Shown: one piece after another, positions 3,501 through 64,000 of the stretch
How the letters are laid out: each line of letters opens with the position of its first letter
How positions within the stretch are numbered: the first letter of the stretch is position 1
Source of the DNA: Marsupella aquatica
Taxonomy: Eukaryota > Plantae > Marchantiophyta
DNA: 64,000 nucleotides
Reading direction: 5' to 3'
NCBI GenBank assembly: GCA_973895155.1
Contig: OZ316895.1
Location: 186,001 to 250,000 of the forward strand
Made by a program: the position numbers and the translations under genes
Notes under the pieces: model-generated
Seen by the model: the letters and a program-made list of their open reading frames with translations, nothing else
Databases searched by the model: none
What the model was told of the DNA's origin: nothing

Positions 3501-3519
3501 TCAATGTCCCTTATTAACT

Positions 3520-28682: not shown

Positions 28683-30693
28683 TGTGGTGCGTCCCATGGC
28701 TCCCCAAACCCAAGAAAACCCCCTTGCTCAAGCTGATTCCCGCAGGTTTCGTCCTCGGCGAGGCCGTTTCTGCGGCTTAGCGGCATGGGACGCTGCTAAC
28801 TCTCCTTCTACTACTATTAACATTTTACACACATATACTGGACAGATCCTTCATCGGGTCATGAGATACTTAGCCGGCCTATTCTAGGCCTTCCCTTGTA
28901 TTCCTCTCCTGGTCTTCCCTTAGGTATGTTTGGATTCCGCCGTCGGAATGATCCCCAATTGGCTTGGTTAAGCCGCTAAGACCTCTCTTAGCTCGACACA
29001 TCCAACTCTCACTCCCTTGCTACTTCCCTTCATTGATGTGGGCACTCTTCACACAAGTTAATGCGACACACAAATAGCAAAATGACTCCTTCTGACTAAG
29101 TTATACCATGCACTTGCCATAAAAACAGTACATCTCATACACAAGCTCTGCGAACTAAGCCGTGAGGCCAACTCTATTCAGTTCTTAGGCATGAGGAAAC
29201 ATGAATATACACGGCGGCGGCGGAATCCAAACATAGACGTGGAGGCACAATAGCGGCATGTGATAGCCAAGCCGGGACACGCTTCCCACGCCGATCACCT
29301 GCTGTTCCTCCTTCAAGATCTTCTTCAGTTGGTTGAGGAGGTACCCGTTGTAATCCCGGCTTGGGTCTGGCCTTTCTGCCAGGTAGACCTGAGCCTTGCC
29401 GATCTCTGCCCTCGGCAAGTTACAATGCATGGTCACCCGCAAGAAATCGATCATCTCTCCGATGTGCGGGTTGGTGCAGGTGTTCCGGAAGAAGCCATTC
29501 TTCGTTGATGGTCCTGGGAACGACCAGAACTCCTTGTCAGGTAAGGTCTTCCTGGTATCAACCTTGGTCTTATTACCCATCGGCAAGCCAAACACCTCGG
29601 CAATCACCCGAGGAGTGAGATAGAAATCCTTCCCATACACCCTCGTGGAATTGGTCTCCTCCCATGATCCCACGAATTCTAATAAGTCTGAGTCCGGCAC
29701 CTCCGGCTTCAGCCATGGTAATCTTATGAAGGCTTCCAAGCCGGATCCGACCATGAAGCCCTGGTACTTCTTGGTCTGCATGGCCGTAAAGCATGCATCC
29801 TCCTCCCGTGCAAAATGTAATTGCACTTCCTCTGGTAGGGTCTCCGCCCAGCCTTTCCAGGTATCATCCTTTGTTGGAATGGCATTGATGGGATCGACCT
29901 CCTCCTCTTGGGCTTCTCCCTGCCTCCTGTTCTGCTGCTCTGCTGGCTTCCTTGGTGCCGCCGACCTTGTTCTTTTTGCCGGGGTGGCCTCTTCGTTGTT
30001 GTTTCCTTTCCTCTTCATCTCGGCTGCCGTGGATGTTTCTCCTAGCACAGTTGCCTTCGTCCACCCCTCTGTGCTACCCTTCAACTCCCAGTGCACGTCG
30101 TTGCAGCGGTTGATGGCTTCCCGAATGCCGACGATTCTATCTTTGCAAAACAGAAGGTCATCGAGCTGATTGGCAGTAGGAGTCCACAAGAACTCGGCCT
30201 TGATGAGTTCTCCTCCTAAGAAGGCAGACTTCTGCAACTCCCATAGTCGAGCGAGCTCCTGCCATTCTCGAGCTGCTCTCTCCGATTCTTCATCCTCGTA
30301 AGTCCTAATGTACTCAGTTGCCCGTTCGAATAGGCATCCCCAAAAATGTGCCGCTTGATTGACGTTGCTCATACCCTCCTTGAGTCAATCGTTGGTATCT
30401 GCTCCCGCCCAGAGTGCTTGCCTAAGTAGCTGACAGTAGTTGGCCTTCCGTAGTCGTCTGCCCAGTTCGTGCTTGCAAATGAGCCACCATTCCTCGCGAG
30501 CAGTCCTTACCCCTTTCCTCCTCTGGTCTTTCCTCCCGTTGGTTACCCCTAGCCGTCGATGCTTAGTGCGCCCTAACCCTAATCGTGTTCTCTCCCCCGG
30601 CGTCCTTACCTCCGGCTTCGGCTCGGGTTCCATAGTCACCCTTAATTGTTTATATTTTCCTTGTTTTTGTTACTATACTAATGTGTTTATAGG
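28683..30693 (-). mobile_element. Family A giant LTR, copy A1 (probable 3' LTR), with 2.6-kb internal deletion
   Basis: Starts with the TGTGGTGCGTCCCATGG terminus and is collinear with 46472-47004 and 49606-51057. It carries the ORF remnant 29185-30639. Confidence 0.9.
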
Positions 30694-30802
30694 GTATCTG
30701 TTCCTGCTTCCTGAGGGTCAGGCCGTTGTGCTCTTCCGGCTTCTAGTAGGGCCTCAATTTGCTCTGCCCTTGAGATTGGCTTGTAAGACGATCCCCTTGT
30801 AT

Positions 30803-33100
30803 TTAATTTGTTGTCGGGGATAGACGGCGTTGTGGATCCTGTCGGCTCTGCCACAACGCCTGAAGAAAATCCACGGTCCCTGTTGTAGCTCCCCACTTAA
30901 CCATTTCACCCAACTGGTCCACCTTTGGTGCTTCCTCCGGGATTGAAGCTAAAAAGGTGGATTCTATGGTAAAGCAGTCCTCGACCTCTTCTTCACCGTC
31001 CTCCAAGTCACTTTCCATAGGTTCTTGCCATAATCCGCTGGGGGGTACCTCTGGTCCAAAGACACTTTCTTCGGTTAGGTCAGTGAGGCATTCTAGCCAA
31101 CGTACCTCATCGGCGAATTCCAGTCCACTGTCGTATCCATCTCTCTCCCTGATGCTTTTCCTGCGGTCATCCTTGGTGTCCCAGGATACCGTGATAGATG
31201 GGGCCCCAAAGGTGAACTCCTTCTTACCCCAATCCTCTATCACCTTGGCTAGGTACAGCCATGGCCTGCCAATTAATAGCCGGAACGACGTAGGGTTTAC
31301 CGGCTTCATTACTACATAGTTAATGCTAAAGAAGATACCTCCTATCTCCGTCTTGATGCCGGTTAACACTCCCGTGGGAATGACTTGATACCCATTGGCC
31401 ATGTTTAACACTCTTCCAGTCATCTCCGGCGTTAGACCCCATCCTTTTGCTGTTGAATCAATCATAATACATACCCCTGATCCTCCATCAATGGGTACTT
31501 GCAATAATATTTCTCCTTGAATCATTAATGGTAATGTTGGGGCTCCTTGATCTTCTTCTATCATCAGCACATCGGATTTGGTTGCTACCTTGGGTAATCT
31601 TGGCTTGCCGAGAATCGCCTTCCTTAACTGCTTCCGAAAGTACGGGCTATTTTTCAATAATTGACCTACGGTTGCCGATACTCTAGATTCTAGCACATCT
31701 TTAGCCAGGTCATAGGGAACTATCGGCTTCTCTTCTGGCGGTGTCTCCATCTTGGCTTTGGCCTGTTTTTTCACGCTGGTTTCCACAGCCATTGCATCCT
31801 CCGAAGCAAACAACGCTTTTGCTCGTTTCACATCCTTGGCTATGGCTTCGGTATTCTCTAGGGTTTCTAATTCTTGCAATTGTTCCTTAACACTAGCCGT
31901 AATAGAGGGGTAGAACAACTTAGGGTGATCTCGATTGAAGTCGCTGTCCTTTGAAGGATTGGGCTCACTGGTGGGCTCATGGCTTACCTATGTTGCCGGC
32001 GCCTTTCCTTCCCCTTCTGTTGATGTTGACGAAGAGTCGATTCTTTCTTCCTTATCCTTCCCTTTATTTTTGGCCAGCCCATCCCACCTTTCCTTCCTTC
32101 TGGTAGATCGAGTAGAGACCCGGTAGCAATCATGATCCAAATCCTCTTCTGAGAAGGTTGATAGGGCCTCGGCCTCATCATCAGATGGTCCGAACTCTGC
32201 CTCGGTATCCATTTGCCATCCGAGTTCAATGTGGTTGATTTGAACTCCTCCGGGGGTAGTACCTGGCGGCAAGACCTTGACTGGCAAGAGCTTATGATTT
32301 GCGGCTAGGCCTGCCAACCACATAGGACATTGTCCTAGCATGTGACTCTCCTGTCGGCATCCCATACATAGCTAAGCTGGTTGTCCATCACCTTGTTTGC
32401 GTGCATTCGGGCATTCTCTAGCAAAATGACCAGGTTGACCACAATTATAGCATGCCGCAAATCTTTGCACATTCGGCCTAGGAGGTACTGACGGATTTTG
32501 AATAATCCGAGGATACATTTCTCCCGGATTGTTCCTTAATCCTGACCAGAGAGATGCAAGTCTATTGGATAGGTCTCGTGCTCCAGTCTCACTGATGCCA
32601 AAAACACTATCAGCGGCATTCCCTAAAAAGTACTCTACTTCTCCTTGACATGGTCTGACCTCAGCCACATGCCAAACATGACTAGTATTAAGTTTAGGAC
32701 ACGCATCTTTATGGTGTCCGGTTTTATAACATAAGGCACACCATATAGAGCTATCCTCCTGTACTACCTTCTTCTTCGGTTTTACCTCTGCTATTATAGC
32801 CTTAAGCTACTTGGTAAGGGCTACGATGTTATTTGGTGTTTTAGCCTCTAGCTTGACTTTCATCTTCCCCCTCCTTCTGCCCTTCCTTTTCCTAGTTTTT
32901 TCTTCTTCAAAACTAGAAGATGACTCACTCTTGCTACCTCCACTATCCGAGCTTGAGTTATCACTTCTTGACTTCTTAGAATGTTTCTTTTTCTTATCGT
33001 TTTTCTTATGGGTTGATCCTTCCTCCGATGAGGAACTCTTAGACTTAAGCTGTTTCTTCCGGCTTGTGATATCTGCATTAATGTGGTCCATTGCATGATT
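30803..33100 (-). pseudogene. Ty3/Gypsy gag-protease remnant
   Basis: One reading frame broken by TAG stops, with three CCHC knuckles (CALCYKTGHHKDAC, CYNCGQPGHFAREC, CMGCRQESHMLGQC) and aspartic protease motifs IDGGSGV and LLIGRPWL. RT and RNase H are absent. Confidence 0.9.
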
Positions 33101-38033: not shown

Positions 38034-39274
38034 GCAGTCAAACTATACAAGAGGAAGGGTTTCGGATGGCTGGGTTAAATCATCTGGTTTTGGATGATAC
38101 TTTGTTAGGGATTGAGGCCTTGTGAGCCTCGTTTTCATTGTAAGACTTTTTCTTACCAACCATGTATTCATCTCAGAATTTGGTGCCTGGTTACAATTTA
38201 CAGAGTTTGAAGAAAATCGCACATGTTATTCATGCCCACATTCATGTCTATTTTAATTGAGTGGTTTGGTCACAAAAGCTCCATACATTTCGACTTTTGT
38301 TTCCACTAGGATCCTGTCTACGTGTGGGTGCTGCAAATTCCTTGCGGGATAATGTCTAGCTTCAACATGGGACACTTCTCCAGACCCGCTTTACTTTGAA
38401 GTATTGGCAAAGTGCATTATTATGGTTTATGTGATTTTTTCTATTGTTCTTTAGTCATGGCGAGCAACAGAACCATGCGGGTGTCCCCAACGTGATCAAA
38501 ATTATTGCCCCGCCGGTGAAATATTGAATATGTAATATTGAGTACATGCAAAAATGATAATTTAACTCTCTCAATTGAGAGACAAAGTGCCTCAAAACCA
38601 ATAAAACTCCCACTGGGATAGATATTCAATATTGTCCTAGTAAAGCCCCTTCAGGGTCGGACGAGTAGAATGGGAAACCTTGGAAAGAACCTGAAGACAT
38701 CAAGTATTTAGGCGACAAGGAATCTGTTCATGGATATGGATGGATTTAGGGTTTGTGCTATGTAAGCACTTTTCTGCAATTTTATTGAGGCACTTTAGCT
38801 ACTCAGAAAAAGTCTTAAAAATTGTTAGCATAGAGATTGTAGATAGTAGAAGCCACGGCTTAAGATTCACCACTTTTGGAGTTTAGGATTAGAAGTGAAA
38901 AATAGTCAAAGATGATAGATTTGTATGTTTTGTCAAAAAAGTATAATGACACTTAGTCATTCCGACACTTTTGAGGGACACTACCATTACAGCAGTACTT
39001 ACACAATGTTACTGGTTCTGCCTGACGGGTTGTGACCAACCATTGTTGATGCGAAAATGAAATGAAGGTGAAAAATAAGTCAATGCGCGCCTTACATTAA
39101 ATCTTTGAACAATTTTACAGTTCCATAAAAACCAGCCTCGCCTACGAGACAGAATTCTTGGAAATCTTCATGTAAGACAAAACTAGCCTCACCTACGAGA
39201 CTGAAACTTTGGATATCCTCATCACACACATCCAGAACCTACAGAACCTACACCTGCAGCGAGTCTTACAGAAC

Positions 39275-40627: not shown

Positions 40628-40907
40628 TGTGACACGGGTAACGTGTCACTTGACCGAACCCAGGTCGTAGATTAGGACTTATACGGTCATTAGGACCGTA
40701 GCCATAGCGTAGAATAGCACGTATAGCCGTCAAGTTGCCATTATGATTAGATTAGGAGTAGGTTAAGATAACCGAATAATTACGAGTTCAGGAAAGGGAT
40801 TATTACGCACGACCGAGGTACGGTGGCGGCAGCGGAGTAAAAATCAGTTAGAAGAATCACGCTTGGACCGAGGCGCCGACTTCAGCTCGTTATCAATGAC
40901 CAAACGA
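40628..40907. mobile_element. Terminal fragment of a third LTR family (starts TGTGACAC)
   Basis: Abruptly interrupts the transposase, has a TGTGAC terminus like family B, and is fused to a family A fragment at ~40908. Confidence 0.5.
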
Positions 40908-42180
40908 GCTGAAGCCATTCTTTGTTGATGAGTTCATCGAGGCCATCGTTATCTTTGTTGATGGTCCTGGGAACGATCGGAACTCCTTGTCAGGTAAGGT
41001 CTTCCTGGTATCAACCTTGGTCTTATTACCCATCGGCAAGTCAAACACCTCGGCAATCACCCGGGGAGTGAGATAGAAATCCTTCCCATACACCCTCGTG
41101 GAATTGGTCTCGGGTTCCCATGATCCCACAAATTCTAATAAGTCTGAGTCCGGCACCTCCGGCTTCAGCCATGGTAATCTTACAAAGGCTTCCAAGCCGG
41201 ATCCGGCCATGAAGCCCTGGTACTTCTTGGTCTGCATGGGCGTAAAATATGCATCCTCCTCCCGTGCAAAATGTAATTGCACTTCCTCTGGTAGGGTCGC
41301 CGCCCAGCCTTTCCAGGTGTCATCCTTTGTTGGAATGGCATTGATGGGATCGACCTCCTCCTCTTGGGCTTCTCCCTGCCTCCTGTTCTGCTGCTCTGCT
41401 CGCTTCCTTGGTGCCGCCGACCTTGTTCTTTTTGCCGGGGTGGCCTCTTCGTTGTTGTTTCCTTTCCTCTTCATCTCGGCTGCCGTGGATGTTTCTCCTA
41501 GCACAGTTGCCTTCGTCCACCCCTCTGTGCTACCCTTCAACTCCCAGTGCACGTCGTTGCAGCGGTTGATGGCTTCCCGAATGCCGACGATTCTATCTTC
41601 GCAAAACAGAAGGTCATCGAGCTGATTGGCAGTAGGAGTCCACAAGAACTCGGCCTTGATGAGTTCTCCTCCTAAGAAGGCAGACTTTTGCAACTCCCAC
41701 AATCGAGCGAGCTCTTGCCGTTCTCGAGCTGCTCTCTCCGATTCTTCATCCTTGTAAGTCCTAGTGTACTTAGTTGCCCGTTCGAACAGGCATCCCCAAA
41801 AATGTGCCGCTTGATTGACATTGCTCATACCCTCCTTGAGTCGATCGTTGGTATCTGCTCCGGCCCAGAGTGCTTGCCTAAGCAATTGACAGTAGTTGGC
41901 CTTCCGTAGTCGTCTGCCCAGTTCGTGCTTGCAAATGAGCCACCATTCCTCGCGAGCGGTCCTTACCCCTCTCCTCCTCTAGTCTTTCCCCCCGTTGGTT
42001 ACCCCTAGCCGCCGATGCTTAGTGCGCCCTAACCCTAATCGTGTTCTCTCCCCCGGTGTCCTTACCTCCGGCCTCGGCCCGGGTTCCATAGTCACCCTTA
42101 ATTGTTTATATTTTCCTTGTTTTTGTTACTATACTAATGTGTTTATAGGGTACACCTCCATTTTCCCCACTTAACTGGCC
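40908..42180 (-). mobile_element. Family A giant LTR fragment (probable 5' LTR partner of A1)
   Basis: Nearly identical to 29490-30693, including subfamily-specific sequence (GTTACTATACTAATGTGTTTATAGGG). It flanks gag-protease in the same orientation as A1. Confidence 0.85.
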
Positions 42181-42290
42181 TAGCCACCTCCGTCTGCCCA
42201 GTTTGTATTCACTACAACCGCCTCAAGAAATACTATATGGACGAAGATGAAGTTGTTCGCGAGGACGCTTCACAATTAAGTGGGGAGCTA
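42181..42290 (+). other. Integrase C-terminus and polypurine tract of family A
   Basis: Translates IHYNRLKKYYMDEDEV (Gypsy integrase end, xHxxRLKxY). TTAAGTGGGGAGCTA directly precedes the LTR start TGTGATGCC at 42291. Confidence 0.7.
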
Positions 42291-42882
42291 TGTGATGCCT
42301 AGCCAGGAATCACTGGGCTAGTTTAAGGGGAAAAGGGAAGTGTACCCTAGAAACACCTTAGTATAGTTACATAAATAAGGAAAATATAAACAATTAAGGG
42401 TGACTATGGAACCCAAGCCGAGGCCGGAAGTAAGGACGCCAGGGGAGAGAACACGATTAGGGTTAGGGCACGCTAAGTGCCGGCGACTAGGGGTAACCAA
42501 CGGGAGGGAGAACCAGAGGAGGAGAGGGGTAAGGACCGCTCGCGAGGAATAGTAGCTCATTTGCAAGCACGAACTGAGCAGGCGACTACGGGCGGCCAAC
42601 TACTGTCAATTGCTTAGGTAAGCGCTCAGGGTGGGAACAGATACCGACTATCAACTCGAGAAGGGTATGAGCAACGTCAATCAAGCGGCATATTTTTGGG
42701 GATGCCTGTTCGAATGGGCAACTGAGTACATTGGGACTTACGAGGACGAAGAATCGGAGAGAGCAGCTCGAGAACGGCAGGAGCTCACCCGATTGTGGGA
42801 GCTGCAGAAAGCTGCCTTCTTAGGAGGAGAACTCATCAAGGCTAAATTCCTGTGGACGCCTACTGGCAACGAGCTAGACGAG
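42291..42882 (+). mobile_element. First ~590 bp of a family A 3' LTR, inverted relative to neighbours
   Basis: Near-perfect reverse complement of ~54803-55394. Confidence 0.9.
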
Positions 42883-45800
42883 CTGGTCCTGATCCTAATC
42901 CTAAACTTAGAGATCTGAGCCCGCCCTGCCCACTCATGCCTCCTCCCTCCACGTCCACCCTCCTTGAAAGGAGCGGCCTTCCACCACCGTCATGGCAACG
43001 GTGTCTGTTCCTTAGTGGACGCCCCCAATGCTTCCTCCTCAGCCACTGCCGTAGGTTCATTCTCTGACAGATTACCTGCCCTTGACTGAGTCAACTCTCC
43101 ATCGGCATCGGCTTCAACATCAGCCTCGGCTACGGCCTCAGCCTCGGCTACATTACCGAGTATCTTGGCCTCGGCTTTGTCATCCCCTTCTTCTAGGGTA
43201 GTTGGATCTTCTACCGTAACCCTGCCAGAGGTCGGTGCTGGGTTTACCTCCTTGGTGCTCACGACCTGTGGAGCCGTATTACTCCTTGACCCTGACGGTT
43301 TCCGCTTCTTCTTCTTTTCTGGTTCGGCAGCTGGCCCCTTCCCCTTCCCACTTACTTCCGGCACTAGTGCAAATGGCGCGGCTTGTCCTTCGGCCAGTAC
43401 CACTCCTGGTAACTTAGTGGCCTCAATTTGAGTTGGCCCTGATGAAGCCAAGCACTTAAATACTGCGGCTTGTTTCTTCAGCCGCTCCGTTTGGTTGTCG
43501 GCTCGTCGTTGTAAGTTCTCTAGCTTCCGCGTGCTTTCCTCCAACTCTTCCTGCACTTCGTCCAGGTCCTTGCGCGCCTCCTCTAGCTCCTTCTGGGCTT
43601 CCTCCAATTCCTTTTTAAACGTAGCTCTCTCCTCCCGGGTCGCTCTTAACTCCTTGTCGAGCTCTGCAATGATGACAGACTCCATCTGGTTCATCTTGGC
43701 ATAAGTCTGATCGAGCATATTGTCCTTCTCACGCAGGTCGGCTTTGAAGCTGGCCGTCAGGGACGCAAGCTCCTGCTGCAGCGCAATAATCTCTTGATAG
43801 GATTTCCCTAACTCGGCCTCCTTCTTCTCAAGGGCTCCGCGGATAACCTCGAGCTCCCCCTTCAATGCCCTTTCCCTTCTCTAGGTCTCCGCCATGGCCC
43901 GGTTGTTGGCTGTTATGTGGGCCTCCTCTGCATCCCTCAGCTCTCGCTTCCACTTCTCCTGCTCCTTGATCGCATCGGCCAACTCTCATTGGGTTCGAGT
44001 CAGTTTATTCTCGATAATCCGATTATCAGACTGTGCGGTATCCAATTGGCCCTGCATGATATTTAGCTCATGCCGCTTAATCTGCAACTCATCTTGGGCT
44101 TTCTTGGCCGCCCTGAGGTCTTTGATTTCGGCTTCCCTTGCCCTAAGCCGACGGATGACCTCGTCCTTCTTGCTTCTTTCCAAAGCCACCGCTTCTTCTA
44201 ATTGGCATTTCTCCAACATCTCCCTCTGAAAAAAGGGTCCTTGCTCCAACTCCTCCCCAAAGATGCTGAGCGCTAGCTCTCCACACATTTCCCCGTACTC
44301 CATGGCTCTATTTTTAGCATAGGTGGAGGAAGTAGAAGTCATCGACATCATCCACCGCGGCCTTTGTTCCCAAGCCGCCTTGCGGATCTCTTCTATTGTG
44401 GCTAGAGGGATGCTTCGTTTTTCTGCAAGCCGCCTGATGTCCTCTAGCCATTCTTTTCCTGGTAAATCCTTTTCCCTAGCCAGGGCTGCCTCCTCTTCTT
44501 CCCTGATTCGCTCCTGAAATTCCTGCGCCGTCTGTTTTATGCCGTCAAAGCTCGGGGGAGCGACATCTGGTGGGGGAGTGTCACGTCGTCGGCTTCGGCC
44601 TTAACTCAGACTTCAGCTTAGACGGGCACATCCCTCATAAATATGAGGGTTCGGGCAGGAAGGGAAGCACGTAATGCACCTTATTCTCGTAAACTAGCGC
44701 TAAGTGCGCATACTGCTAAATACGAACACCTCCTAGGTATGGTTTGTGTTCCGCCGCCGGAACGTATCTTAGTCGATAGCAAGATCGACCCTGACTTAAG
44801 GGCTTCTAAGCCTTCGTGTTGTCCGCCTTCGATCCGGATTCGATGATACAGGTCCTCAACCCGTGCTCGCAACCATTTACCCATAGGCTGCACCCTGTGC
44901 ACGTCTCGGGTAGTGCGTTCGGCCTGGCGCTGCCACCCATATACAAGAAACCCACACACATACACGCACACATGCATACAATCTCGATTTACACGAAGGA
45001 AAATGATGGGAAAGGATTTTACTACAAAGGAAATATATGCGTACACTTAGTTGACCCGACAGTCTCGGAATGAACAGGTTCAAGGCCGAGGGTGCACACT
45101 ACAATGGAGCCCGGCTCCGCACTCGCCCGGCGAGCTTAGTCCTACCCCCCCTTGGTACTCTTTCATTCCCAGAGGTCGGGACTCCCCGCACATACCGCGG
45201 ACGTCCAACTCTGAAACTAAAAACCCCCCTGCCTCTACCGAGGGGTGCACTAAATACTAAGGGCCGAGGGACGGGGTGTCCTCTCACCGAAGATTTGCTG
45301 ACTAAGGTCCTAACTAAGCTGACAGTCAGGCCGGAAACGGCTGTCTTATTAGAAGATCCTAATCTACGCAGGCTGGACAGCATGGCAGCGATGCTGTACC
45401 TAAGGCAGGTGCCTGTCCCAAGAGCCTGACTAAGCTAGTCCTAATCCTAATCTATTCCCGCTAATGCTTGGCACGCTTGCCAGAGCCGCCTGAATGGGAG
45501 CGGCCATCCCGCTGCCTTCGAAGCCTGTCATTGTCCGCCTTGAGGAGCTGGACCTGGTCCAATAGAGATTCGTTCTCTCACCTCGCCGCGTCCGTCTCCT
45601 CTGCTGCCTCCTGACATGCCTCCTCCAGCTACTGGGCGTCGCTCGTCAGTTTACCCGCCAGCTGGTCCTGCTTCTCGACCTTGGTTTGGAGCCGCGCCAC
45701 CTCGGCCTGCAGCGTGGCTATCTCCGCCGTGTCCCGCTGGGCCCGTTCCTCGGCCTCCTCCAGGTCTTTCTGCCAGGTGACAGTTTGATTCTTCAAACTG

Positions 45801-46471
45801 TCAATCTGGTTCCGGAGTCGTGTAATCTCGGCCTCGTTCCCAGCTTTGGCCTGTTCGGCTAGGGCGGTAAGAGCGTGCGCCTTTGCTAACAACTCATCGG
45901 TGGCTGCAACCTTGGGTCGTAGTTGCCGAAGCTCAGCCTCTTGAGCCGCAACTTCATTCTTTAGGTACACGGACTCCACCCGGTACCGCTCTATCCTCTG
46001 AAGGGCCTTTGACTGGGCCCGACCTGCCTTTACTGCGGCAACCAACTCCTGATTGAAGAAATAGGCTACCTTCCGGGCCATGAACTCCCCGGTATCCCGG
46101 GCAATTTGATGAGAGAAATCTCCCAGAAGCCCGTTCAGAAATGTACCCGGTACGAAGAGTTCCGGGTGGTCCAGGTTGTGCTTGTCCGGAGTTGGGCACG
46201 GGCAGACGTCAACACGCGCGGGGGCCGGGGCAGTGACGTCCAGCCCTGGGGACGTAACGTTGGAAGGGGCTGGAGCGTCCTCCTGTAGCAATGTCCGGTT
46301 CTCTGGAATAGCCACCGGTGGGTCTTTGGGAGAACCGGGCTCGGGTAAGACCTCCGCTGTACCGACTTTTGTACTTCGCCCGACCTGTTGGGTCGCATCA
46401 ACGGTTGCGACACCCGACCCATCCGGTACCTCCTCGGTTACGACTATAGCTACTTGTGGAGGTGGGGTGGG

Positions 46472-49400
46472 TGTGGTGCGTCCCATGGCTCCCTAAACCC
46501 AAGAAACCCCCCAGCTCAAGCCGATTCCCGCAGGTTTCGCGCTTGGTGAGGCCGTTTCCGTGGCTTAGCGGCATGGGACGCTGCTAACCTCCTTCTACTA
46601 TTACTATTAGCCTTTTACACACATATACTGGACAGATCCTTCATCGGGTCATGTGATACGTAGCCGGCCTAATCTAGGCCTTCCCTTGTCTTCCTCTCTT
46701 CTGGTTAGGTATGTTTGGATTCCGCCGCCGGAATGATCCCCAATAGGCTTGGTTAAGCCGCTAAGACCTCTCTCAGCTCGACACATCCAACTCTCACTCC
46801 CTTGCTTACTTTCCTTCCTTCTGGTTGATGTGGGCACTCTTCACACAAGTTAATGCGACACACAAATAGCAAAATGACTCCTTCTGACTGAGTCATACCA
46901 TGCACTTGCAATACAAACAGTACATCTCATACACAAGCTCTGCGAACTAAGCCGTGAGGCCAACTCTATTCAGCTCTTAGGCATGAGGAAACATGAATAT
47001 ACACAAGGTCACGGTATGACTAACCGAGAGCTTCTCTTACTACTTGATCCCAGCCCGGCTGGTGCAAACTAAAAACTTGCTAAAGAAGAGGCCCTGAGCT
47101 CCCCGCTGCCCAGGTACTTATCCTGGTAGTGGATCCGCCTAATTCTTTGCAGCGTAAGCCTAATCTACCTAACAGTAACCTACCTGCCCGAATCTACCTA
47201 TGTACAGCAAGGCAGGAGCACAAGTGTTGCTCCTACCAGTGGAACCGCAATCCCACTAAGCTAAGTGTCAGGGCCGCTCCTGGTCCTGATCCTAACCCTA
47301 AACTTGGAGATCAGCGCCCGCCCTGCCCACTCACGCCTCCTACCTCCATGTCCGCCCTTCCTAAAAGGAACGGCGCCCTTGCACTGTCACGACACCGGTG
47401 GTGGATCCTCAATGGACACCCCCAATGCTTCCTCCGCAACCACTGCCGTCCTCTGACAGATTACCTGCCTCTGACCGAGTCAACTTTTCATCGGCATGAC
47501 TGGGCCCACCCTCGGCTTCGGCATCGGCTCGGAAATCATTCTCGGCTACGGCCTCAGCCACGGCTTCAGCCACTGTCTCCCCGGCCTGCTCAAGAGGTGG
47601 ATCTGGGATACCGGCCTTATTACTGAGTAGTTTGGCTTGGGCCGCGCCATCCCCACCTTTGGTGATAGCGGAATCTATTGCCGTGTTCATGCCGGAGGTT
47701 GGCGCTGGTTTGAGTACGGCTTGAGGGGTCGAATAACCTCCGGACCCCGAAGGTTTCCGCTTATTCTTCTTCACTATCTCCATAGCCTGTTCCTTCCCTT
47801 TGCCGCCAACGTTCGGCACCGGGCCGTGTGTCACGGCTGGTCCTTCGGTAATTACCACCCCTGGTAACTGGTTTGCCCCAACGGGAGATGGACCTGATGC
47901 AGCTAAGCATTTAAATACTGCGGCTTGTTTCTTCAGCCGCTCAGTTTGGTTGTCGGCCCGACGCTGTAGGTTCTCCATCTTCCTTGTGATTTCCTCCAAC
48001 TCCTCCTGGGTCTCATCCAGGTCCTTACGTGCCTTCTCCAGCTCGTTTTTGGCTTCCTCCAATTCCTTGTGGGCTTCCTCCAATTCCTTCTTGGTGGTAG
48101 CCCTCTCCTCCTGGGTTGCTCTCAGCTCCTTGTCGAGCTCCGCTACGACCTTAGATTCCATGTTATGCATCTTGGCATAAGTCTGGTCGAGCTGGGCGTC
48201 CTTCTCCCGCAGGTCAGCCTTGAAGCTGGCCGTCAGGGACGCAAGCTCCTACTGTAGTGCAATAATCCCTTGATAGGATTTCCCTAACTCGGCCTCCTTC
48301 TGCTCAAGGGCTCCGCGGATTTTCTCGAGCTCCCCCTTCAACGCCCATTCCTTTCTTTGAGTCTCCGCCGTGACCCGGTTGTTGACTGCTATATGGGCCT
48401 CCTCTGCATTTCTCAGCTCCTTCTTCCATTTCTCCCTGTCCTTGATTGCGTCGGCCAATTCTCCCTGGGTCTGAGTCAGTTTATCCTTGAAAATCTGATT
48501 ATCAGCCTGCGTTGTGTCCAACTGCCCCTGCATGATGTTCAGCTCATGCCGCTTAATCCACAGTTCATCTTGGGCTTTCTTGGCCGCCTTTAGATCTTCA
48601 ATCTCGGCTTCCATCCTCCTAAGCCGCCGGATGACCTCGTCCTTCTTGCTTCTCTCTAAAGCCACCGCTTCTTCTAATTGGTTCTTCTCCAACTGCTCCC
48701 TATGGAAAAAGGGTCCTACCTCCAACTCCTCCCCAAAGATGCCGAGCGCAAGTTCCCCACACATCTCACCATACTCCATGGCTCTATTCTTAGCGTAGGT
48801 GGAATAAGCAGAAGTGATCGGCATCGCCCATCGCGGCCTCTGCTCCCAAGCCATCTTGCGGATCTCTTCAATCGTGGCTAGAGGTTTGCTTCCTTTTTTG
48901 GCTAGCCGCCTGATGTCCTCCGGCCAATCTCCTCTTGGCAAATCCTTTTCCCTAGCCAGGGCTGCTTCCTCTTCCTGCCTGATTCGCTCCTGAAATTCAT
49001 GCGCCGTCTGTTTTATGCCGTCAAAGCTCGGGGGAGCAACATCTGGTGGGGGAGACTCAGGGCTACTCTGCTGGTTGGGGTCCCCTCGTACTACCCTTGG
49101 AAGTGTGGGGATAAACCGGCCACAGGTCCTTACTCCTGGAACGTGATGGTCCAACCCATAGCCGGAGTTATCATGGCTGCAGTCCTCCACTGCCTCCTCT
49201 ACTTCTTGGACTTCCGGCTTCTCCCTCTCTTCTTCGTCGGTAGGAGCTTCAGGCAATTCTACCTCAGATTCAAAGCTTGAGACTCCCACGTACATTCGAG
49301 CACCCGGCTTGGATTCTGGCCTGATTCTGCTTAGGCTGACCTCTGGGGCAGTGTCCTGTATTGGTGCTGCTGCCGAAGCTGGTACCGGTGCCGATCTCTT

Positions 49401-51111
49401 CTCTTTCTCCAACATTTTCAGCAGATTCTGTATGCTTGGTTGCTGCATCGGCAAGTCTTCCTTCCTTGGCCTAAACACCTGCTCAATCGTAGGGCTAACA
49501 GGTGGTTGAGGCTTCTCTACTACCAGCCTCGGTGCTGGGGCTTCCTCGGGTGCCCTTACCTGCAGGGGAAGTACTGGGGCAAAGGTCTGACCTCTGGCAT
49601 ACCGACACAACAGCGGCATGTGATAGCCAAGCCGCGACACGCTCCCCATGCCGATTACCTGATGCTCCTCCTTTAAGATCTTCTTCAATTGGTTGAGGAG
49701 GTACCCATTGTAGTCCCGGCTTGGGTCTGGCCTCTCTGCCAGATAGACCTGTGCCTTGCCGATCTCTGCCCTTGGCAAGTTACAATGCATGGTCACCCGC
49801 AAGAAGTCGATCATCTCTCCTATGTGCGGGTTGGTGCAGGTGTTCCGGAAGAAGCCGTTCTTCGTTGATGGCCCGGGGAACGACCGGAACTCCTTGTCAG
49901 GCAAGGTCTTCCTGGTATCAACTTTGGTCTTATTGCCTATCGGCAAGCCAAACACTTCGGCAATCACCTTGGGAGTAAGATAGAAATCCTTCCCATATAT
50001 CCTCGTGCAATTGGTCTTGGGTTCCCATGACCCCACGAATTCTAATAGGTCTGAATCCGGTACCTCCGGCTTCAGCCATGGTAATCTTACAAAGGCCTCT
50101 AAGCCGGATCCGGCCATGAAGCCTTGGTACTTCTTGGTCTGCATGGCCGTAAAGCATGCATCCTCCTCCCGTGCAAAATGTAGTTGCACCTCCGCTGGTA
50201 GGGTTGCCGCCCAGCCCTTCCAGGTGTCATCCCTGGTTGGAATGGCATTGATGGGATCGTCCTCCTCCTCTTCGGCTTCTCCCTTCCTCCTGCTCTGCTG
50301 CTCGGCTGGCTTCTTTGGTGCCGCCGACCTCGTTCTTTTTGCCGGGGTGGCTTCATCGTTGACGGCTCTCTTCCTCTTCATCTCGGCTACCGTGGAGGTT
50401 TCTCCTAGCACCGTTGCCTGGGTCCACCTTTCCGTGCTACCCTTCAATTCCCAGTGTATGTTGTTGCAGTTCTTGATGGCCTCTCGAATGCCGATGATTC
50501 TGTCTTCGCAAAACAGAAGATCGTCGAGCTGATTGGAAGTAGGAGTCCACAAGAACTCAGCCTTGATGAGTTCGCCTCCTAAGAAAGCCGTCTTCTGCAG
50601 CTCCCACAATCGAGCGAGCTCCTATCGTTCTTGAGCTGCCCTTTCTGATTCTTCGTCCTCGTAAGTCTTGATGTACTCAATTGCCCGTTCGAACATGCAT
50701 CCCCAGAAATGTGCCGCTTGATTGACGTTGCTCATACCCTCCTTGAGTCGATCGTTGGTATCTGTTCCCACCCCGCATGCTTGCCTAAGCAGCTGACAGT
50801 AGTTGGCCTCCCGTAGTCGTCTGCCTAGTTCGTGCTCGCAAATGAGCCACCATCTCCTGCAAGCGCTCCTTACCCCTCTCCTCTTCCGGTCCTTTCTCCC
50901 GTTGATCCTTCCTAGCCGCCGATGCTTAGCGCGCCCTAACCCTAATCTTGTTTTCACCCCCAGCGTCCTTACCTCCGGCCTCGGCCCGGGTTCCATAGTC
51001 ACCCCTAATTGTTTATATTTTCCTTGTTTTGTCCCTATACTAAGGTGTTTCTAGGGTGCACTCCTGCTTTACCCACTTAACTGGCCGAGTGATTCCTAGC
51101 TAGGCATCACA
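46472..51111 (-). mobile_element. Family A complete solo LTR, 4640 bp (copy A2)
   Basis: TGTGGTGC...GCATCACA inverted termini and 5-bp TSD GTGGG (46467-46471, 51112-51116). Confidence 0.93.
47384..50996 (-). pseudogene. Family A LTR-encoded protein (~1100-1200 aa reconstructed)
   Basis: ORFs 50622-51002, 48249-50609 and 47409-48170 share one frame, separated by single TAG codons that read CAG in sister copies. The product has a FYLTP.VIAEVFGLP core, a long coiled coil and a KKxKRKP motif. Confidence 0.85.
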
Positions 51112-54100
51112 GTGGGTGAAGCTGGCATGTCCGCTGGACTTCGGGCCTCGGGTTGGGGCCGTCTCTCCAAGGCCGGGAAAACCCACCTAGCTGGGACCAG
51201 CTTTGTAACATTGACACGGGGAAGGGTTCGTCGATCAAACCGAGCGTACCACTCAAGAATGATCTCGATGTGGCTAGCAAAATACGCCTTCCCGCCAATG
51301 TACAGCGTCTTCTTTCGCCGCTCCATCTCTTCATGGAATTTCTTAGCGAAGTACGACGCCCACCTCCTAGGTTGATAGTTCTCGACCTGGATAACCTGGG
51401 CGGCGGAGATCTCTCCCCGGGGTTCCATCATGTGGAGGGCGTACCTCTGGAACTCCAGTCGCTCAGCTATCTCCGGGATGAGACAGGTCCTCATCACGAA
51501 CCCGTTGTCCACTGCTCCCTCTGAGGGAAAGCTTGAAGATTGGTACTTGGCTCCCTTGCCCCCGGGAGCCCGTGATTCAACTCGATGGTCACCTTCGGGT
51601 AACCCGAAGATCATCCTGAGCCATTCTTCCGTGAGGGACATACTCCTTCCCCGCAACCGAGTATGTTGACGCGCGTCATCATCATTCCTGACGAACTCCG
51701 TCATGTCCTCCCCGTAGTACCTGCAAGTGTTCCAGGGGAGGGAGGCGAGGTGCTCGAATCCCTGAGTCTTCAGGTACACCACATGCTTGGGATGGAGGAT
51801 GTTTTTGTGAACGTTTTCCCCCATGCGGTGCATTGTCACCTTGGCTACGCCTACCGTGGCCAACGGTAACCCGGATGCAATGGCGGATTCCTTCCTCTTC
51901 TTCCCAAGTGACTGGCTCGGGGAAGGTGACACCTCCCCATCCTCCCGATTGGGCCTGGGTAGTGCCACTGCCGTTAGTAACGGGCCCGGGTCGGCCACCA
52001 TGTTGTCTGCCGGGGCCGCTCCTGGGGTCAGAGCAGGGGGTGGGGACGATATAGTGTCGGCCCCCTGAGCGCTTGTTCCTCTGGGCCTCCTGGTCAAGGG
52101 TGGGGTAGCCTCGTCGTCATCGCTAAGATCCACAGCGTTGATGACGGAGCGTACTTGTGCTGGCTGGGCGATCGGTGGTGGGGTTTGGCTAGGCTGCGGC
52201 TGAGGCTGAGGCTGAAGCTGAAGCTGAACCTGAGGTTGTATGGGTACGGATACGGGTACGGGTACGGCTGAGTTGGTCATATTGGTTGATGGCCGAGTTC
52301 CCCTGAAGCTCTGTAGGTGCTGGTAGAAGTTCTCCGAAGCGAGTGCAGACGACCTTGTCGAACGGGTAGTGCTGGACTCGCTGTTGATGATAGCCCGAAC
52401 CTGAGCAGGGATGTGGTCAAAGTGATGTCGTTGCAAGTCAATCGTACCTGGGATATTGAAGACCTCGTCCGGAAGCTGAAGCAATGCTTCCCAGAACCCG
52501 ATATATTTGTCTCCGTTGAAGAAGTACCCAGATACTTCTGCTGGTCGGTAAAGCTCGCTCTGAGACGGGTAGTCAAAGTTAAGGATGTAGTGGTGTCGTC
52601 CTGCTAGGCGGATGGCTCTCTCGTACTCGCGTTCGATTTTGTATCGGCGCGGGTTGGAGTGTTTCAATGAGTCGGCCAAATGCCTTCCGGTAGATAGGAA
52701 CTGCGTCCAGAATTGAATGGCCGAGCTGGAGAGGATCGTGTGCGACATTCAGAGGAGATAGTAGTGGCGACTTAGAGCAAACGAGAGAGCTGGGGTCGAA
52801 GCTGGCGCGTGGACTGATGGACTGGTGCACTACAAAGGGTTGGCTCCCCTTTTATACCTTGAGGGCTTGTCGATCCTCCGACGTCTCCTCGATGCCCATA
52901 GGCTGAACCGCTCACGCATGTGGTGTACCGGCCACTCCGCCGGTCTGAGTCAGCGCGTGTCAGTGGCCGCTTCCTTAAGTTCGTTATACGGACCCAAGGG
53001 AGGGGCCCCTCCACGCTCGTAACCCGGGTGTGCGAATAGCGACCCGCCGCCAGTCCGAACCTGAATTCCCCCTTATTGCCTAATGATGTCCTACCCATAA
53101 TGATTACCTAAATACTATCGTTATGCTAATAATAGCGGCCTAAGACACTCCTAACGCGCGTGCTGAGCGCAGTTAGACCAAATCACTCATTAACCGCCGT
53201 ACCGGCGGCGTCACAGGGAGACTCGGGGCTGCTCTGCTAGCTCGGGTCTCCTTGAACTACTCTTGGGAGCGTGGGGATGAACTGGCCACAGGTCCTTACT
53301 CCTGGAACATGATGATCCAACCCGTAGCCGAAGTCATCATTGCTGTAGTCCTCTACCGCCTCCTCCTTGGCTTGGACTACCGGCTTCTCCCGCTGTTCTC
53401 CTGGTTTTGTCATGAACACGGCTTCACCTCTCACCGGTCTTGGTTCCTCCTCCGGCTTCCGTGTTGATCTCTTGTTCTCCTTGTCGTGGCCGGGAGCTAC
53501 GGCCTCCTTCTCCTCGGCTTCGGGACTTGAGGCTCCTACATACATCCGGACTCCCGGCTCGTGTTCCGACCTCCTTCTCTCCTTGACCCCAGTAAAGGGG
53601 TTTTCCCTTGTAAGCCGGCTTAGGCCTACCTCTGGAGCAGTGTCCTGCATTGGTGCTATTGCCGTTGCCGTTGCCGTTCTCTTTTCCTTCTCCAGCAATT
53701 TCAGCAGATTTTGCATGCCTGGTTGCTGCATCGGCAAGTCCTCCGTCCTTGGCCTAAACACCTGCTCGATTGTAGGACTGTCGGGCGGGTTGGGTTTCTC
53801 CGTTGCCGGCCTCTGTTCCGGAACCTCCTCTGGTGCCCTTGCCTGTAGGGGAAGTACCGGGGCAAAGGTCTTACTTCGGGCATACCGGCATAGTAGCGGT
53901 ACGTGATAGCCAAGCCGGGACACGCTTCCCTTGCCTATCACCAGTTGTTCCTCCTTCAAGATCTTCTTTAGTTGAGTGAGGAGGTAACCATTGTAGTCCC
54001 GGCTTGGGTCTGGCCTCTCTGCCAGATAGACCTATGCCTCACCGATCTCTGGTCTCGGCCAGTTGCAATGCATGGTCACCCGCAAGAAATCGATCATCTC

Positions 54101-55394
54101 TCCTATATGCGGGTTGGTGCAGGTGTTTCGGAAGAAGCCATTCTTTGTTGAAGGCCCGGGAAATGACCGGAACTCCTTGTCTGGCAAAGTCTTCCTGGTA
54201 TCTACCTTGGTCTTATTGCCCTTCGGCAAGCCAAACACTTCGGCAATCACCTGGGGAGTGAGATAGAAATCCTTCCCATACACCCTTGTGGAATTGGTCT
54301 CGGACTCCCATGATCCCACGAATTCTAGTAAGTTTGAATCCGGCACCTCCGGCTTCAACCATGGTAACTTTACGAAGGCTTCCAAGCCGGATCCGGCCAT
54401 GAAGCCCTGGTATTTCTGAGTCTGCATAGCCGTAAAGCATGCATCCTCCTCCCGTGCAAAGTATAATTGCACTTCCTCGGGGAGAATCGCCGCCCAGCCT
54501 TTCCAGGTGTCATCTCTTGTTGGAATGGCGTTGATGGGGTCGACCTCCTCCTCCTCGGCTTCTCTCTGCCTCTTGCTCTCCTTTTTTGCTGGCTTCCTTG
54601 GTGCCGCCGACCTCGTTCTTTTTGCCAGGGTGGCCTCTTCGTTGTTGTTCCCCTTCCTCTTCATCTCGGCTGCCGTGGATGTCTCTCCTAGCACGGTTGC
54701 CTTTGTCCACCCCTCCGTGCTACCCTTCAACTCCCAGTGTATGTCGTTGCAGCGTTTGATGGCTTCGCGGATGCCGACAACTCTGTCTTCGCAAAACAGC
54801 AGGTCGTCTAGCTTGTTGCCAGTAGGCGTCCACAGGAATTCAGCTTTGATGAGTTCTCCTCCTAAGAAGGAAGCTTTCTGCAGCTCCCACAATCGGGCGA
54901 GCTCCTGCCGTTCTTGAGCTGCTCTCTCTGATTCTTTGTCCTCGTAAGTCCCAATGTACTCAGTTGCCCGTTCGAACAGGCATCCCCAAAAATGTGCCGC
55001 TTGATTGACGTTGCTCATACCCTTCTCGAGTTGATAGTCGGTATCTGTTCCCACCCTGAGCGCTTGCCTAAGCAGTTGACAGTAGTTGGCCGCCCGTAGT
55101 CGCCTGCCCAGTTCGTGCTTGCAAATGAGCCACTATTCCTCGCGAGCGGTCCTTACCCCTCTCCTCCTCTGGTTCTCCCTCCCGTTGGTTACCCCTAGCC
55201 GACGGCACTTAGCGTGCCCTAACCCTAATCATGTTCTCTCCCCTGGCGTCCTTACTTCCGGCCTCGGCTCGGGTTCCATAGTCACCCTTAATTGTTTATA
55301 TTTTCCTTATTTATGTAACTATACTAAGGTGTTTCTAGGGTACACTTCCCATTTCCCTTTAAACTAGCCCAGTGATTCCTGGCTAGGCATCACA

Positions 55395-61085: not shown

Positions 61086-63641
61086 TGTGGTGCGTCCCAT
61101 GGCTCCCTAAACCCAAGAAACCCCTCTGCACAAGCCGATTCCCGCAGGTTTCGCTCTTGGCAAGGCCGATTTTGCGGCTTAATGGCATGGGACGCTGCTA
61201 ACTTCCTTCTACTACTATTACTATTAATATTTTACTCACATATACTGGACAGATCCTTCATCGGGTCATGAGATACGTAGCCGGTCTATTCTAGGCCTTC
61301 CCTTTTCCTCCTCTCTTGGTTTTCCTTTAGGTATGTTTGGATTCTGCCGCCGGAATGATCCCCAACTGGCTTGGATAAGCCGCTAAGACCTCTCTCAGCT
61401 CGACACATCCAACTCTTACTACCTTGCTTACTCCCTTCTTGGTTGATGTGGGCAATCTTCAAACAGGTTAATGCGACACACAAATAGCAAAATGACTCCT
61501 TATGACTGAGTTATACCATGCACTTGCCATACAAACAGTACTTCTCATACAAGATCTGCGAACTAAGCCATGAGGCCAACTCTATTCATCTCTTAGGTAT
61601 GAGAAAACATGAATATTCACAAGGGTCACAGTATAACTAACCGAGAGCTTCTTTAACTACTTGATCTCAGCCCTGCTGGTGCACTAAAAACTTGCTAAGG
61701 AAGAAGGCCCTGAACTCCCCGCTGCCCAGGTACTTATCCTAGTAGTGGATTCGCCTAATTCCTTGCAACATAAGCCTAATCTACCTAACTGAATCTACCT
61801 AAATGTACAGCGAGGCAGGAGCACAAGTGTTGCTCTTACCAGTGGATCCGCAATCCCACTAAGTTAAGTGTCAGGGCCGCCCCTTGGTCCTGATCCTAAT
61901 TCTAAACTTGGAGATCTGAGCCCACCCTGCCCACTCACGCCTCCTCCCTCCATGTCCGCCCTCCTTAAAAGGAGCGGCCCTCCACCACTGTCATGGCAGC
62001 GGTGTCTGGTCCTCAATGGACGCCCCCAACGCTTCCTCCGCAGCCACTACCGTAGGTCCATTCTCTGACAGATTACCTGCTCCGGACCGAGTCAACTCTC
62101 CATCGGCCTGACTGGGTCCACCCTCGGCTTCGGCCTCAGCATCGGCCACGGCCTCTGATACGGCTACGGTCTCCCCGACATGCTCTAGTGGTGGATCCGG
62201 TACCCTGGCTTCATCACCGAGTATCCTGGCCTCGGCTTTGCCATCCCCGCCTTCTAGGGCAGTTGGATCCTCTACCGTGATCCTGCCTGAGGTTGGTGTT
62301 GGGTTTACCTCCTTGGTCACGACGGCTTGAGGAGCCGTATTACTCCCTGACCCAGAAGGTTTCCGCTTCTTCTTCTTCCTTGGTTCGGCAGCTGGCCCCT
62401 TCCCCTTGCCACTTACCTCCGGCACCGGTGCGAGTATCTCGGCTTGTCCTTCAGCCAGTACTACTCCTGGAAACTTGGTTGCCCCTATTGGAGTTGGACC
62501 TGAGGAAGCCAAGCACTTAAATACTGCGGCCTGTTTCTTCAACCACTCCATTTGGTTGTCGGCTTGCCGCTGTAAGTTCTCCATCTTCCGCGTGCTTTCC
62601 TCCAACTCCTCCTTAAATTCATCCAGGTCCTTGCGCGCCTCCTTCTGCTCCTTCTGGGCTTCCTCCAATTCCTTCTTTAAGGTAGCCCTCTCCTCCTGGG
62701 TTGCTCTCAGCTCCTTGTCGAGCTCCGTAACGACCTCAGACTCCATTTTATTCATCTTGGCATAAGTTTGATCAAGCTGGTCGTCTTTCTCACGCAGGTC
62801 GGCCTTGAAGCTGGCCGTCAGGGATGCAAGCTTCTGCCGCAGCACGATAATTGCCTGATAGGATTTCCCTAACTCGGCCTCCTTCTGCTCAAGGGCACCG
62901 CGGATATCCTTGAGTTCCCCCTTCAGCGCCCTTTCCCTTCTCTGAGTTTCCGCCATGGCCCGATTGTTGGCTGCTATGTGGGCCTCCTCTGCGTCTCTCA
63001 GCTCTCGCTTCCACTTCTCCTTCTCCTTGATCAAATCGGCCAACTCTCCTTGGGTCCGAGTCAGTTTATCCTTGATAATCTGATTATTAGACTGCGCGGT
63101 ATCCAATTGCCCCTGCATGATGTTGAGCTCATGCCGCTTAATCCGCAACTCATCTTGGGCTTTCTTGGTCGCCTTCAGGTCTTCTACCTTGGCTTCCCTT
63201 GCCCTAAGCCGACGGATGACCTCATTCTTCTTGCTTCTCTCCAAAGCCACCGCTTCTTCTAATCGGCGCTTCTCCAACATTTTCCTCTGGAAAAAGGGTC
63301 CCTGCTCCAACTCCTCCCCAAAGATGCCGAGCGCAAGTTCCCCACACATCTCCCCGTACTCCATGGCTCGTTCTTTAGCATAGGCGGAGTGAGTAGAAGT
63401 CATCGGCATCATCCATCATGGCCTTTGTTCCCAAGCCGCCTTGCAGATTTCTTCTATTGTGGCTGGAGGGTTGCTTCATTTTTCTGCGAGCCGCATGATG
63501 TGCTCCGACCATTCTCCCCCATGGTAAATCTTTCTCCCTAGCCAGGGCTGCCTTCTCTTCCTCCCTGAGTCGCTCCTGAAACTCTTGTGCTATCTGTTTT
63601 ATGCCGTCAAAGCTCGGGGGAGCGACATCTGGTGGGGGAGA
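61086..63641 (-). mobile_element. Family A giant LTR, copy A4 (3' half), interrupted by A5
   Basis: TGTGGTGCGTCCC terminus at 61086 and a 473-aa open coiled-coil segment at 61991-63412. Confidence 0.92.
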
Positions 63642-64000
63642 TGTGGTGCGTCCCATGGCTCCCTAAACCCAAGAAACCCCCCAGCTCAAGCCGATTCCCG
63701 CAGGTTTCGTGCTTGGCGAGGCTGTTTCCGCGGCTTAGCGACATGGGACGCTGCTAACCTTCTACTACTACTATTAACATTTTACACACATATACTGGAC
63801 AGATCCTTCATCGGGTCATGAGATACGTAGCCGGCCTAAGCTAGGCCTTCCCCTGTCTTCCCCTCCATCTTGATAGGTATGTTTGGATTCCGCCGCCGGA
63901 ATGATCCCCAATAGGCTTGGTTAAGCCGCTAAGACCTCTCTCAGCTCGACACATCCAACTCTCACTCCCCTGCTTACTTTCCTTCCTTCTGTTGATGTGG
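63642..64000 (-). mobile_element. Family A giant LTR, copy A5, runs off the window
   Basis: TGTGGTGCGTCCC terminus at 63642, collinear with 46472 onward. Confidence 0.92.

Follow-up and report, generated by a model that had tools for sequence, protein, structure and literature searches.

The retrotransposons closest to the locus described here are plant Gypsy elements that carry a gene besides gag and pol. In the parts of PMC7264820, PMC6317226, PMC4408406 and PMC3485330 drawn on here, these extra open reading frames (ORFs) are assigned to the internal region, or to a position up- or downstream of the polyprotein, Grande gene23 is described as nuclear with its own promoter, and the long terminal repeats (LTRs) of the OTA group are said to reach about 5 kb. 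Genes embedded in the LTR itself are familiar from vertebrate retroviruses: the sag gene of mouse mammary tumour virus (MMTV) lies wholly in U3 and the nef gene of human immunodeficiency virus (HIV) partly in U3, and the section of PMC12789967 that covers them lists both as made from spliced RNAs. Plant LTRs, on the other hand, are usually regarded as devoid of genes, solo LTRs being seen as inert remnants. In this work, we examine a stretch of 64,000 nucleotides from the liverwort Marsupella aquatica (contig OZ316895.1, positions 186,001 to 250,000, hereafter the window) and focus on a unit of 4640 bp, termed A2, which is most likely a solo LTR of a Ty3/Gypsy family (family A), and about 70% of which is a gene under selection.

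The A2 unit and its gene

Positions within the unit are counted along the minus strand on a scale s, from s1 (51111) to s4640 (46472), and all features are collected in Table 1. A2 extends from TGTGGTGC (46472) to GCATCACA (51111), with GTGGG at either flank, and its TG...CA termini show an imperfect inverted match of about 8 bp. In three of four public runs, contigs skip exactly 4645 bases at 46466/51112, which identifies A2 as an insertion and bears out the description, given in an earlier note made from the sequence alone, of a 4640-bp unit with TG...CA inverted ends and a 5-bp target site duplication (TSD). That note had also seen neither gag nor pol in the unit, and tblastn with two gag-pol proteins as queries indeed gave no match inside it. 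Self-BLAST at word size 7 found no direct repeat between the ends of A2, which excludes an internally deleted element of the TRIM or LARD kind, with short LTRs, and no Pfam match to a transposase was found in it, while its inverted ends of about 8 bp are not those of a DNA transposon with terminal inverted repeats. Thus, the two pictures that the earlier note had set against its own, namely short LTRs with the ORF internal to them and a deleted element or DNA transposon, are not what the unit presents.

The unit is connected to a retrotransposon through its s1 terminus. This terminus recurs at 42291 on the plus strand, where it directly follows an integrase-end frame (HYNRLKKYY...SGEL) and a purine tract at 42276-42290, the polypurine tract (PPT), just as had been noticed earlier; at 51111 and 55394, the same terminus adjoins non-PPT DNA, as expected for a 5' or solo LTR. 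Integrase is last in pol and adjoins the PPT, which is the Ty3/Gypsy order. The exact junction from PPT to TG recurs, with variant letters, in contigs of runs from two studies. When the four public runs were mapped on 42130-42430, the summed depth, which is no copy number, was of the same order over the integrase/PPT segment and over the LTR start in three of them (X1, X2 and X3). Among 32 listed pieces (1743 more exist), one, from X2 at 42228-42334, bridges the junction by at least 31 letters on both sides and four more reach 24-28 letters into the LTR across it. The loose ends before 42197 in X1, X2 and X3 (6, 13 and 9 contigs, agreement 0.82-0.92) were judged by eye to be more integrase. 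The LTR piece that follows the PPT (s1-594) already holds a TATA box, a start codon and codons under selection, with a ratio of non-synonymous to synonymous change (dN/dS) of 0.20, and the start of the gene is therefore placed inside the 3' LTR. As for the full length of the LTR, it is taken to be that of the TSD-flanked unit, because a shorter LTR would make the 3' end of A2 repeat internal sequence, and no such repeat is seen. Given the PPT link, the TSD and the lack of internal repeats, the proposal that the unit is the LTR itself with the ORF in sense orientation stands: A2 is best read, and most likely, as a solo LTR of a non-chromovirus Ty3/Gypsy family, and the gene very probably lies within the LTR.

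The lineage of the family can be approached through P0001, a Gypsy gag-pol protein of 1954 aa with gag, reverse transcriptase (RT), RNase H and integrase families and the integrase at its end, among whose listed Pfam domains there is neither a chromodomain nor an extra RNase H. Its C-terminus resembles the integrase end of the window (6 of 13 residues identical, E 0.003). No RT, RNase H or integrase core of family A was found in the window by tblastn with the two gag-pol proteins, no P0001 locus was found in viral or genome contigs, and the DNA patterns of the LTR ends and the PPT had no match in metagenome, prokaryote-genome and viral contigs.

The gene occupies 72% of A2 and is under purifying selection. 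The earlier note had given about 3.6 kb of the unit to one reading frame; the frame exists (50996-47409, 3588 bp, 1195 codons), but it is not open in A2, where stops lie at 50622-50624 (codon 125) and 48249-48251 (codon 916), and its first 87 codons look non-coding, which leaves a gene of 1108 codons. Both stops of A2 are sense codons in all the other copies that cover them (four for codon 125, two for codon 916). Six pieces overlap the frame, and their dN/dS values by the Nei-Gojobori method, which are not independent because all are taken against A2, are 0.22 (641 codons, bootstrap 0.17-0.28), 0.26, 0.22, 0.26, 0.29 and 0.46. The last belongs to the shortest piece, with 155 codons, over half of which lie upstream of the true start. 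The comparison across copies that the earlier note had proposed thus gives 0.22-0.29 for five of six pieces, far below 1. By region, the values against A2 rise from 0.09-0.13 in the core domain to 0.19-0.23 in the coiled coil and 0.43-0.48 in the tail, and they are 0.16-0.41 in six of the seven pairs that exclude A2. Against A2, 13 of 16 indels within the frame are divisible by 3, as opposed to 5 of 28 outside. We discarded the first ATG (50996) as a start codon, because codons 1-87 evolve like non-coding sequence (dN/dS 0.75-0.95, stops in all four other copies), whereas codons 88-165 show 0.10-0.20 and no stops. As selection begins at codon 88, the start is placed at the second ATG, 50735.

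A2 is nested in a unit of a second family, B, which is itself nested in another copy of family A, termed A3. B holds a single ORF of 825 codons in all, with the A2 insertion as its sole interruption, and its domain is 27% identical to that of family A over 206 aa (BLASTP, E 1e-17). The layout of both families is alike, with a TATA box, then the ORF, then a TGTA tract, and self-BLAST found no repeats between the two halves of B. By analogy with A2, B is a probable solo LTR. Since a second family with a protein of 27% identity appears to share it, the gene-in-LTR layout would be old rather than accidental.

Transcription signals and rival readings

Both units contain exactly one TATAWA when both strands are scanned, in sense and before the ATG, at s95 in A and at s360 in B (chance about 0.1 each), and TGTA words cluster 400-700 bp downstream of the stop in both. 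The 3' non-coding parts of A and B share a motif of 28 nt, with a score of 41 as compared with a maximum of 32 in 200 shuffles, which is kept in all four A copies holding that part and in one inverted remnant. It can form a hairpin of 5-6 bp in both families, the 71-nt folds not being clearly better than shuffles (z -0.28 and -1.84). The deletion junction of the copy at 28683-30696 holds, at 29212-29245, an inverted filler copied from this motif. Along the LTR, the divergence between A2 and the copy at 61086 is 0.12-0.33 before about s3800 and 0.06-0.08 after. The low figure, a comparison between subfamilies, applies to the non-coding 3' part (46472-47310 compared with 61086-61900), as opposed to a gene dS of 0.46, and may reflect constraint or recombination at a U3/R boundary. 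A telobox-like AACCCTAA (50938-50945) is found in the predicted 5' untranslated region of all five A copies holding that part, and again after the stop in A2 (47294-47301); teloboxes recruit Polycomb in Arabidopsis, according to the portion of bioRxiv 10.1101/2024.09.27.615353 used here.

The reading that we favour, and hold to be moderately probable, is that of a gene carried in the LTR of a non-chromovirus Gypsy element, with its own TATA promoter, and encoding a nuclear accessory factor. The gene would lie in a giant U3, at about s1-3800; its mRNA would start some 30 nt past the TATA box at s95 and end in the LTR poly(A) region near s4100-4250, whereas the genomic gag-pol RNA would start at a second, TATA-less site between the stop of the gene and the poly(A) region. 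On this arrangement, each RNA would carry one copy of the gene, which reverse transcription would turn into two. A solo LTR that is intact would hold all that expression requires, namely promoter, ORF and poly(A) region, and the same would be true if the gene lies in R.

Several observations weigh against this reading. No primer-binding site (PBS) follows any of the four LTR 3' ends in the window, whose neighbours are LINE DNA, B, another A copy or unique sequence, and instead of a complete element with an LTR at each end the window shows only rearranged sister pairs (96.4% and 96.5%). The PPT is common to other LTR families: its summed depth in the run X5 is 36,000-44,000, as compared with 66-318 for the LTR past s15, and in loose ends it is preceded and followed by other sequences. 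The TGTA excess is modest (6 as compared with 4.2 expected in A, 8 as compared with 3.9 in B), no second promoter was identified, TATAWA being absent from the 3' parts of A and of B, and neither a PPT link nor a second copy of B is shown within the window. Finally, all copies of family A in the window are either incomplete or interrupted by stops, so that none of them could act in trans today. As a separate observation, the same PPT with a TGTGA start (42276-42295) precedes other LTR sequences in public runs; several related families share this PPT, and some of them may be B-like.

The single TATA box is explained more simply if it starts both RNAs, which would put the gene in an R of about 4 kb at both ends of the genomic RNA; polyadenylation in the 5' LTR would yield the mRNA of the gene, and read-through the genome. 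Both families have their sole TATAWA before the gene and the TGTA tract after it, and B without its ORF resembles an ordinary LTR with a U3 of about 390 bp. However, retroviral R regions measure only 15-250 nt in the section cited of PMC12789967, an upstream ORF of 1108 codons would block scanning to gag, whose expression would need splicing or internal initiation, and the divergence step near s3800 fits a boundary downstream of the gene. We consider this arrangement rather unlikely and favour the U3 position because R then stays short and gag can be translated. Its fuller version is doubtful as a whole: a Gypsy clade centred on liverworts in which the LTR would be a self-contained gene, made up of a promoter, an ORF of 800-1100 codons from an unnamed family of chromatin factors and a poly(A) site, with the ORF sitting in a multi-kilobase R, so that each insertion or solo LTR would seed an expressible anti-silencing cassette. 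Placing the gene in U5 instead is highly improbable. A short R would end before the start codon, for which the distance of 108-282 bp from TATA to ATG leaves room, and the gene, comparable to Ogre ORF1 but followed by the PBS, would be the first cistron of the genomic RNA. Ogre and Retrosat2 do have 5' extra ORFs, to go by the passages used of PMC6317226 and PMC3485330. Yet poly(A)-like tracts lie downstream of the gene in both families, and the minus-strand strong-stop DNA would exceed 4 kb.

That A2 is no LTR at all is very unlikely. It would then be a non-autonomous element with one gene, or the product of a deletion, with ends that suit integrase, and the copy at 42291 would have landed beside the PPT of another family by chance. 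The window shows no PBS or intact element, the PPT is shared by several families, and two relatives of the domain joined to weak DDE_Tnp_4 matches, together with a weak match in the ORF at 34189 (E 0.002), make it possible that DNA transposons carry the domain as well. On the other side, the PPT-to-TG junction is exact and recurs with variant letters in the contigs of two studies, no internal repeats are fit to serve as LTRs, the inverted ends measure only about 8 bp, and the piece at 42291 has a sister at 55394 that is 96.5% alike. A last alternative concerns what the protein does rather than where its gene lies: as an integration-targeting or particle factor, it would steer insertions into copies of these LTR genes. 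A2 sits in the gene of B, B in the gene of A3, and the copy at 63642 in a further A gene, no more than 1 bp away from the position taken by B, and P0001 lists no chromodomain. But nested insertions are common in retrotransposon-rich DNA, two other A ends abut LINE fragments, and the evidence comes from one window only; we regard such a role as unlikely.

Relatives of the protein and a working model

The A protein has basic clusters such as KRKR upstream of its domain, and its coiled-coil matches in Pfam are all below cut-off. No membrane segment was found, the maximal KD19 values being 0.92 for A and 1.29 and 0.77 for the two parts of B, so that the proteins do not look env-like. Word-indexed protein searches returned no relatives of the gene. 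A full HMMER scan of 1.84 billion proteins with a profile of the domain, made from five window sequences, retrieved 67 at E<=0.001, and a profile made from 28 of these relatives alone recovers both A (E 2e-43) and B (E 5e-50). This second profile also has a weak match (E 0.002) in an ORF at 34189 that is part of neither A nor B; the ORFs of that block include a coiled coil and a Cys-rich tail as well. Of ten clusters looked up from the 67 matches, four contain unnamed proteins of the liverwort Calypogeia fissa (CAM6090539.1, CAM6082161.1, CAM6105325.1 and CAM6101870.1), and two of the 67 relatives are joined to weak DDE_Tnp_4 matches. Structure models of the domain reached a pLDDT of 31 and 34, unusable for fold comparison, and sequence searches of the PDB gave nothing, or coiled-coil noise at E>=0.096. 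Four metagenome loci with 30-32% identity over about 60 residues (E 2e-4 to 3e-4) were regarded as spurious and left aside.

The protein is predicted to be a nuclear accessory factor of the element. We propose as a working model that the domain recognises a motif in the LTRs of the family and opposes chromatin silencing, with the coiled coil as an arm for dimerization or for a partner; this is tentative, and we think it rather likelier to be wrong than right. It was chosen because the nearest named families are PMD and DUF1985, because PMD-A is encoded by Gypsy elements, as the part used of PMC5418596 has it, and because PMD-C proteins, in association with DNA motifs, counteract H3K27me3/Polycomb silencing at host promoters, as described in the part used of bioRxiv 10.1101/2024.09.27.615353. 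Other results speak against the model. The A and B domains have no Pfam match up to E 10 except a sub-threshold MobI in B, and none of the 67 relatives matches PMD (PF10536), DUF1985 (PF09331) or Transposase_28 at E<=0.001. An Atlas embedding search placed unnamed streptophyte clusters first, with DUF1985 and PMD at 0.89-0.90 and 146-154 shared features, which is low, comes from a single source and serves as a lead only. The resemblance of the domain to PMD/DUF1985 is thus weak. Liverworts use Polycomb against transposons.

The rest of the window and the known systems

Ten BLAST pieces of family A in the window group into seven copies, which agrees with the earlier count of seven pieces of the LTR.

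Table 1. Features of the window, with positions on the s scale where they apply.
Feature	Coordinates	Strand	Remarks
A2, most likely a solo LTR of family A	46472..51111	-	TG...CA ends, TSD, no terminal direct repeat, empty site
TSD GTGGG of A2	46467..46471 (second copy 51112-51116)	+	Read from the sequence
LTR-embedded gene of family A, 1108 codons	47409..50735	-	Order: N-terminal part, conserved domain, linker, long coiled coil, low-complexity tail
Conserved unnamed domain (~186 aa)	49605..50162	-	dN/dS 0.09-0.13
TATAWA (s95)	51012..51017	-	282 bp upstream of start codon; sole match in A2; present in 4/4 other copies with this end
TGTA-rich tract, candidate poly(A) region	46912..47003	-	~400-500 bp past stop
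Hairpin-forming motif common to 3' non-coding parts of A and B	46713..46733	-	
Unit B, probable solo LTR of second family	44579..53215	-	Inserted in A3; TG...CA, TSD GGGAG (44574-44578 / 53216-53220); 3992 bp without A2
B gene, 5' part, 544 codons	51117..52748	-	Holds the homologous domain; TATAAA 52851-52856, 108 bp upstream of ATG
B gene, 3' part	45629..46471	-	Coiled coil; in frame with 5' part
Gypsy integrase C-terminus and PPT	42197..42290	+	PPT 42276-42290
Start of 3' LTR (s1-594)	42291..42884	+	TATA, start codon, first ~70 gene codons; inverted relative to A3
A3, 5' part (s1-2062)	53216..55394	-	BLAST
A3, 3' part (s2058-3832)	42883..44578	-	Separated from 5' part by unit B
A copy (s23-1253)	40952..42183	-	
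A copy with internal deletion (s55-1506 and s4108-4640)	28683..30696	-	
Broken gag (zinc knuckles) and protease, Gypsy	31007..32833	-	37% to P0001 over 637 columns
A copy (s2057-4640)	61086..63641	-	
3' end of a further A copy	63642..64000	-	Apparently inserted in the 61086 copy; runs past window end

The 5' part of A3 (53216-55394) and the piece at 42291-42884 are 96.5% alike and are probably sister LTRs of one element; the dN/dS of this pair is 0.69 at a dS of 0.05, as expected for decay after insertion. The earlier note had described two copies as flanking gag-protease. The copies at 40952-42183 and 29246-30696 are indeed 96.4% alike and lie on either side of it (32833-31007), but about 7.7 kb of unrelated DNA lies between, and there is no PBS or PPT at either junction. 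This gag-protease probably belongs with family A. The block at 28683-55394 looks like rearranged elements within LINE DNA, with LINE remains beside it (an endonuclease at 28412 and an RT at 55396).

B and the copy at 63642 were inserted in two different A copies at sites within 1 bp of each other (s2057-2062; 44574-44578/53216-53220 and 63637-63641), a possible hotspot, the TSD of the 63642 copy lying off the window. A short piece starting with TGTCAC (40641-40951) adjoins the copy at 40952 and is possibly the end of a third LTR family. The TG...CA/TSD pairs 39031-40634 and 2010-18835 were set aside as being at chance level. The ORFs at 34189-35997 sit in a DNA-transposon-like block, with short subterminal-type repeats at about 33100-33500 and 36950-37350 and transposase-like remnants, seen by eye, at 39275-40600. 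Away from the LTRs, the window holds a gene of 1380 codons for RNA editing, of the PPR-DYW type (10357-14499), in which five tandem units of 303 bp (89% identity) and a duplicate of 216 bp represent a recent internal expansion of PPR motifs.

If solo LTRs of this kind are expressed, the accessory gene outlasts the loss of gag-pol by recombination, and host control of these elements would have to be modelled differently. In the fuller giant-R version, where every solo LTR would be an expressible anti-silencing cassette, solo-LTR formation, the main removal route of the host, would multiply a counter-defence gene rather than delete it. A gene in the LTR is also a test case for what the extra ORFs of plants do, and the host genes listed as 'unnamed protein' in liverwort annotations may include such LTR genes.

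MMTV sag and HIV nef are a few hundred codons long. Literature searches, at the level of listings and abstract starts, gave no report of an LTR that holds a kilobase-scale gene in any plant retrotransposon, although the supplements of PMC6317226, which list the positions of the extra ORFs, could hold such cases; a phrase match in PMC6673714 turned out to be a methods sentence. MAIN, MAIL1 and MAIL2 and the Gypsy PMD-A proteins (PMC5418596, in the part used) belong to the nearest named families by embedding, but hidden Markov models give no support for membership. The non-chromoviruses of moss and spikemoss, Phygy and Selgy, have in common with family A a polyprotein that runs up to the PPT, and P0001 lists no chromodomain or extra RNase H; however, they are short and are contrasted with the OTA elements that bear extra ORFs, and Phygy prefers an NCGN target, whereas the TSDs here are the 5-bp GTGGG and GGGAG (PMC6317226, in the sections that treat them).

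The likeness is closer with the extra ORFs of the OTA elements of plants (Ogre ORF1/PMD PF10536, Retand TRP28 PF04195, Athila ORF-1, Grande gene23, Retrosat2 ORF0), which are likewise non-gag/pol genes without a membrane segment kept across copies of non-chromovirus Gypsy elements, and by analogy the gene of family A may work as such an accessory gene does. Its domain matches none of their Pfam families, however, and it is enclosed by the PPT-proximal TG and the terminal CA and is retained when only a solo LTR is left. With MMTV sag and HIV nef, it shares a coding sequence that is in the LTR and doubled in each provirus. These are accessory genes of vertebrate retroviruses, in contrast to the genes described here, which belong to plant retrotransposons, are unrelated in sequence, run to 825-1108 codons and have their own TATA box inside the LTR.

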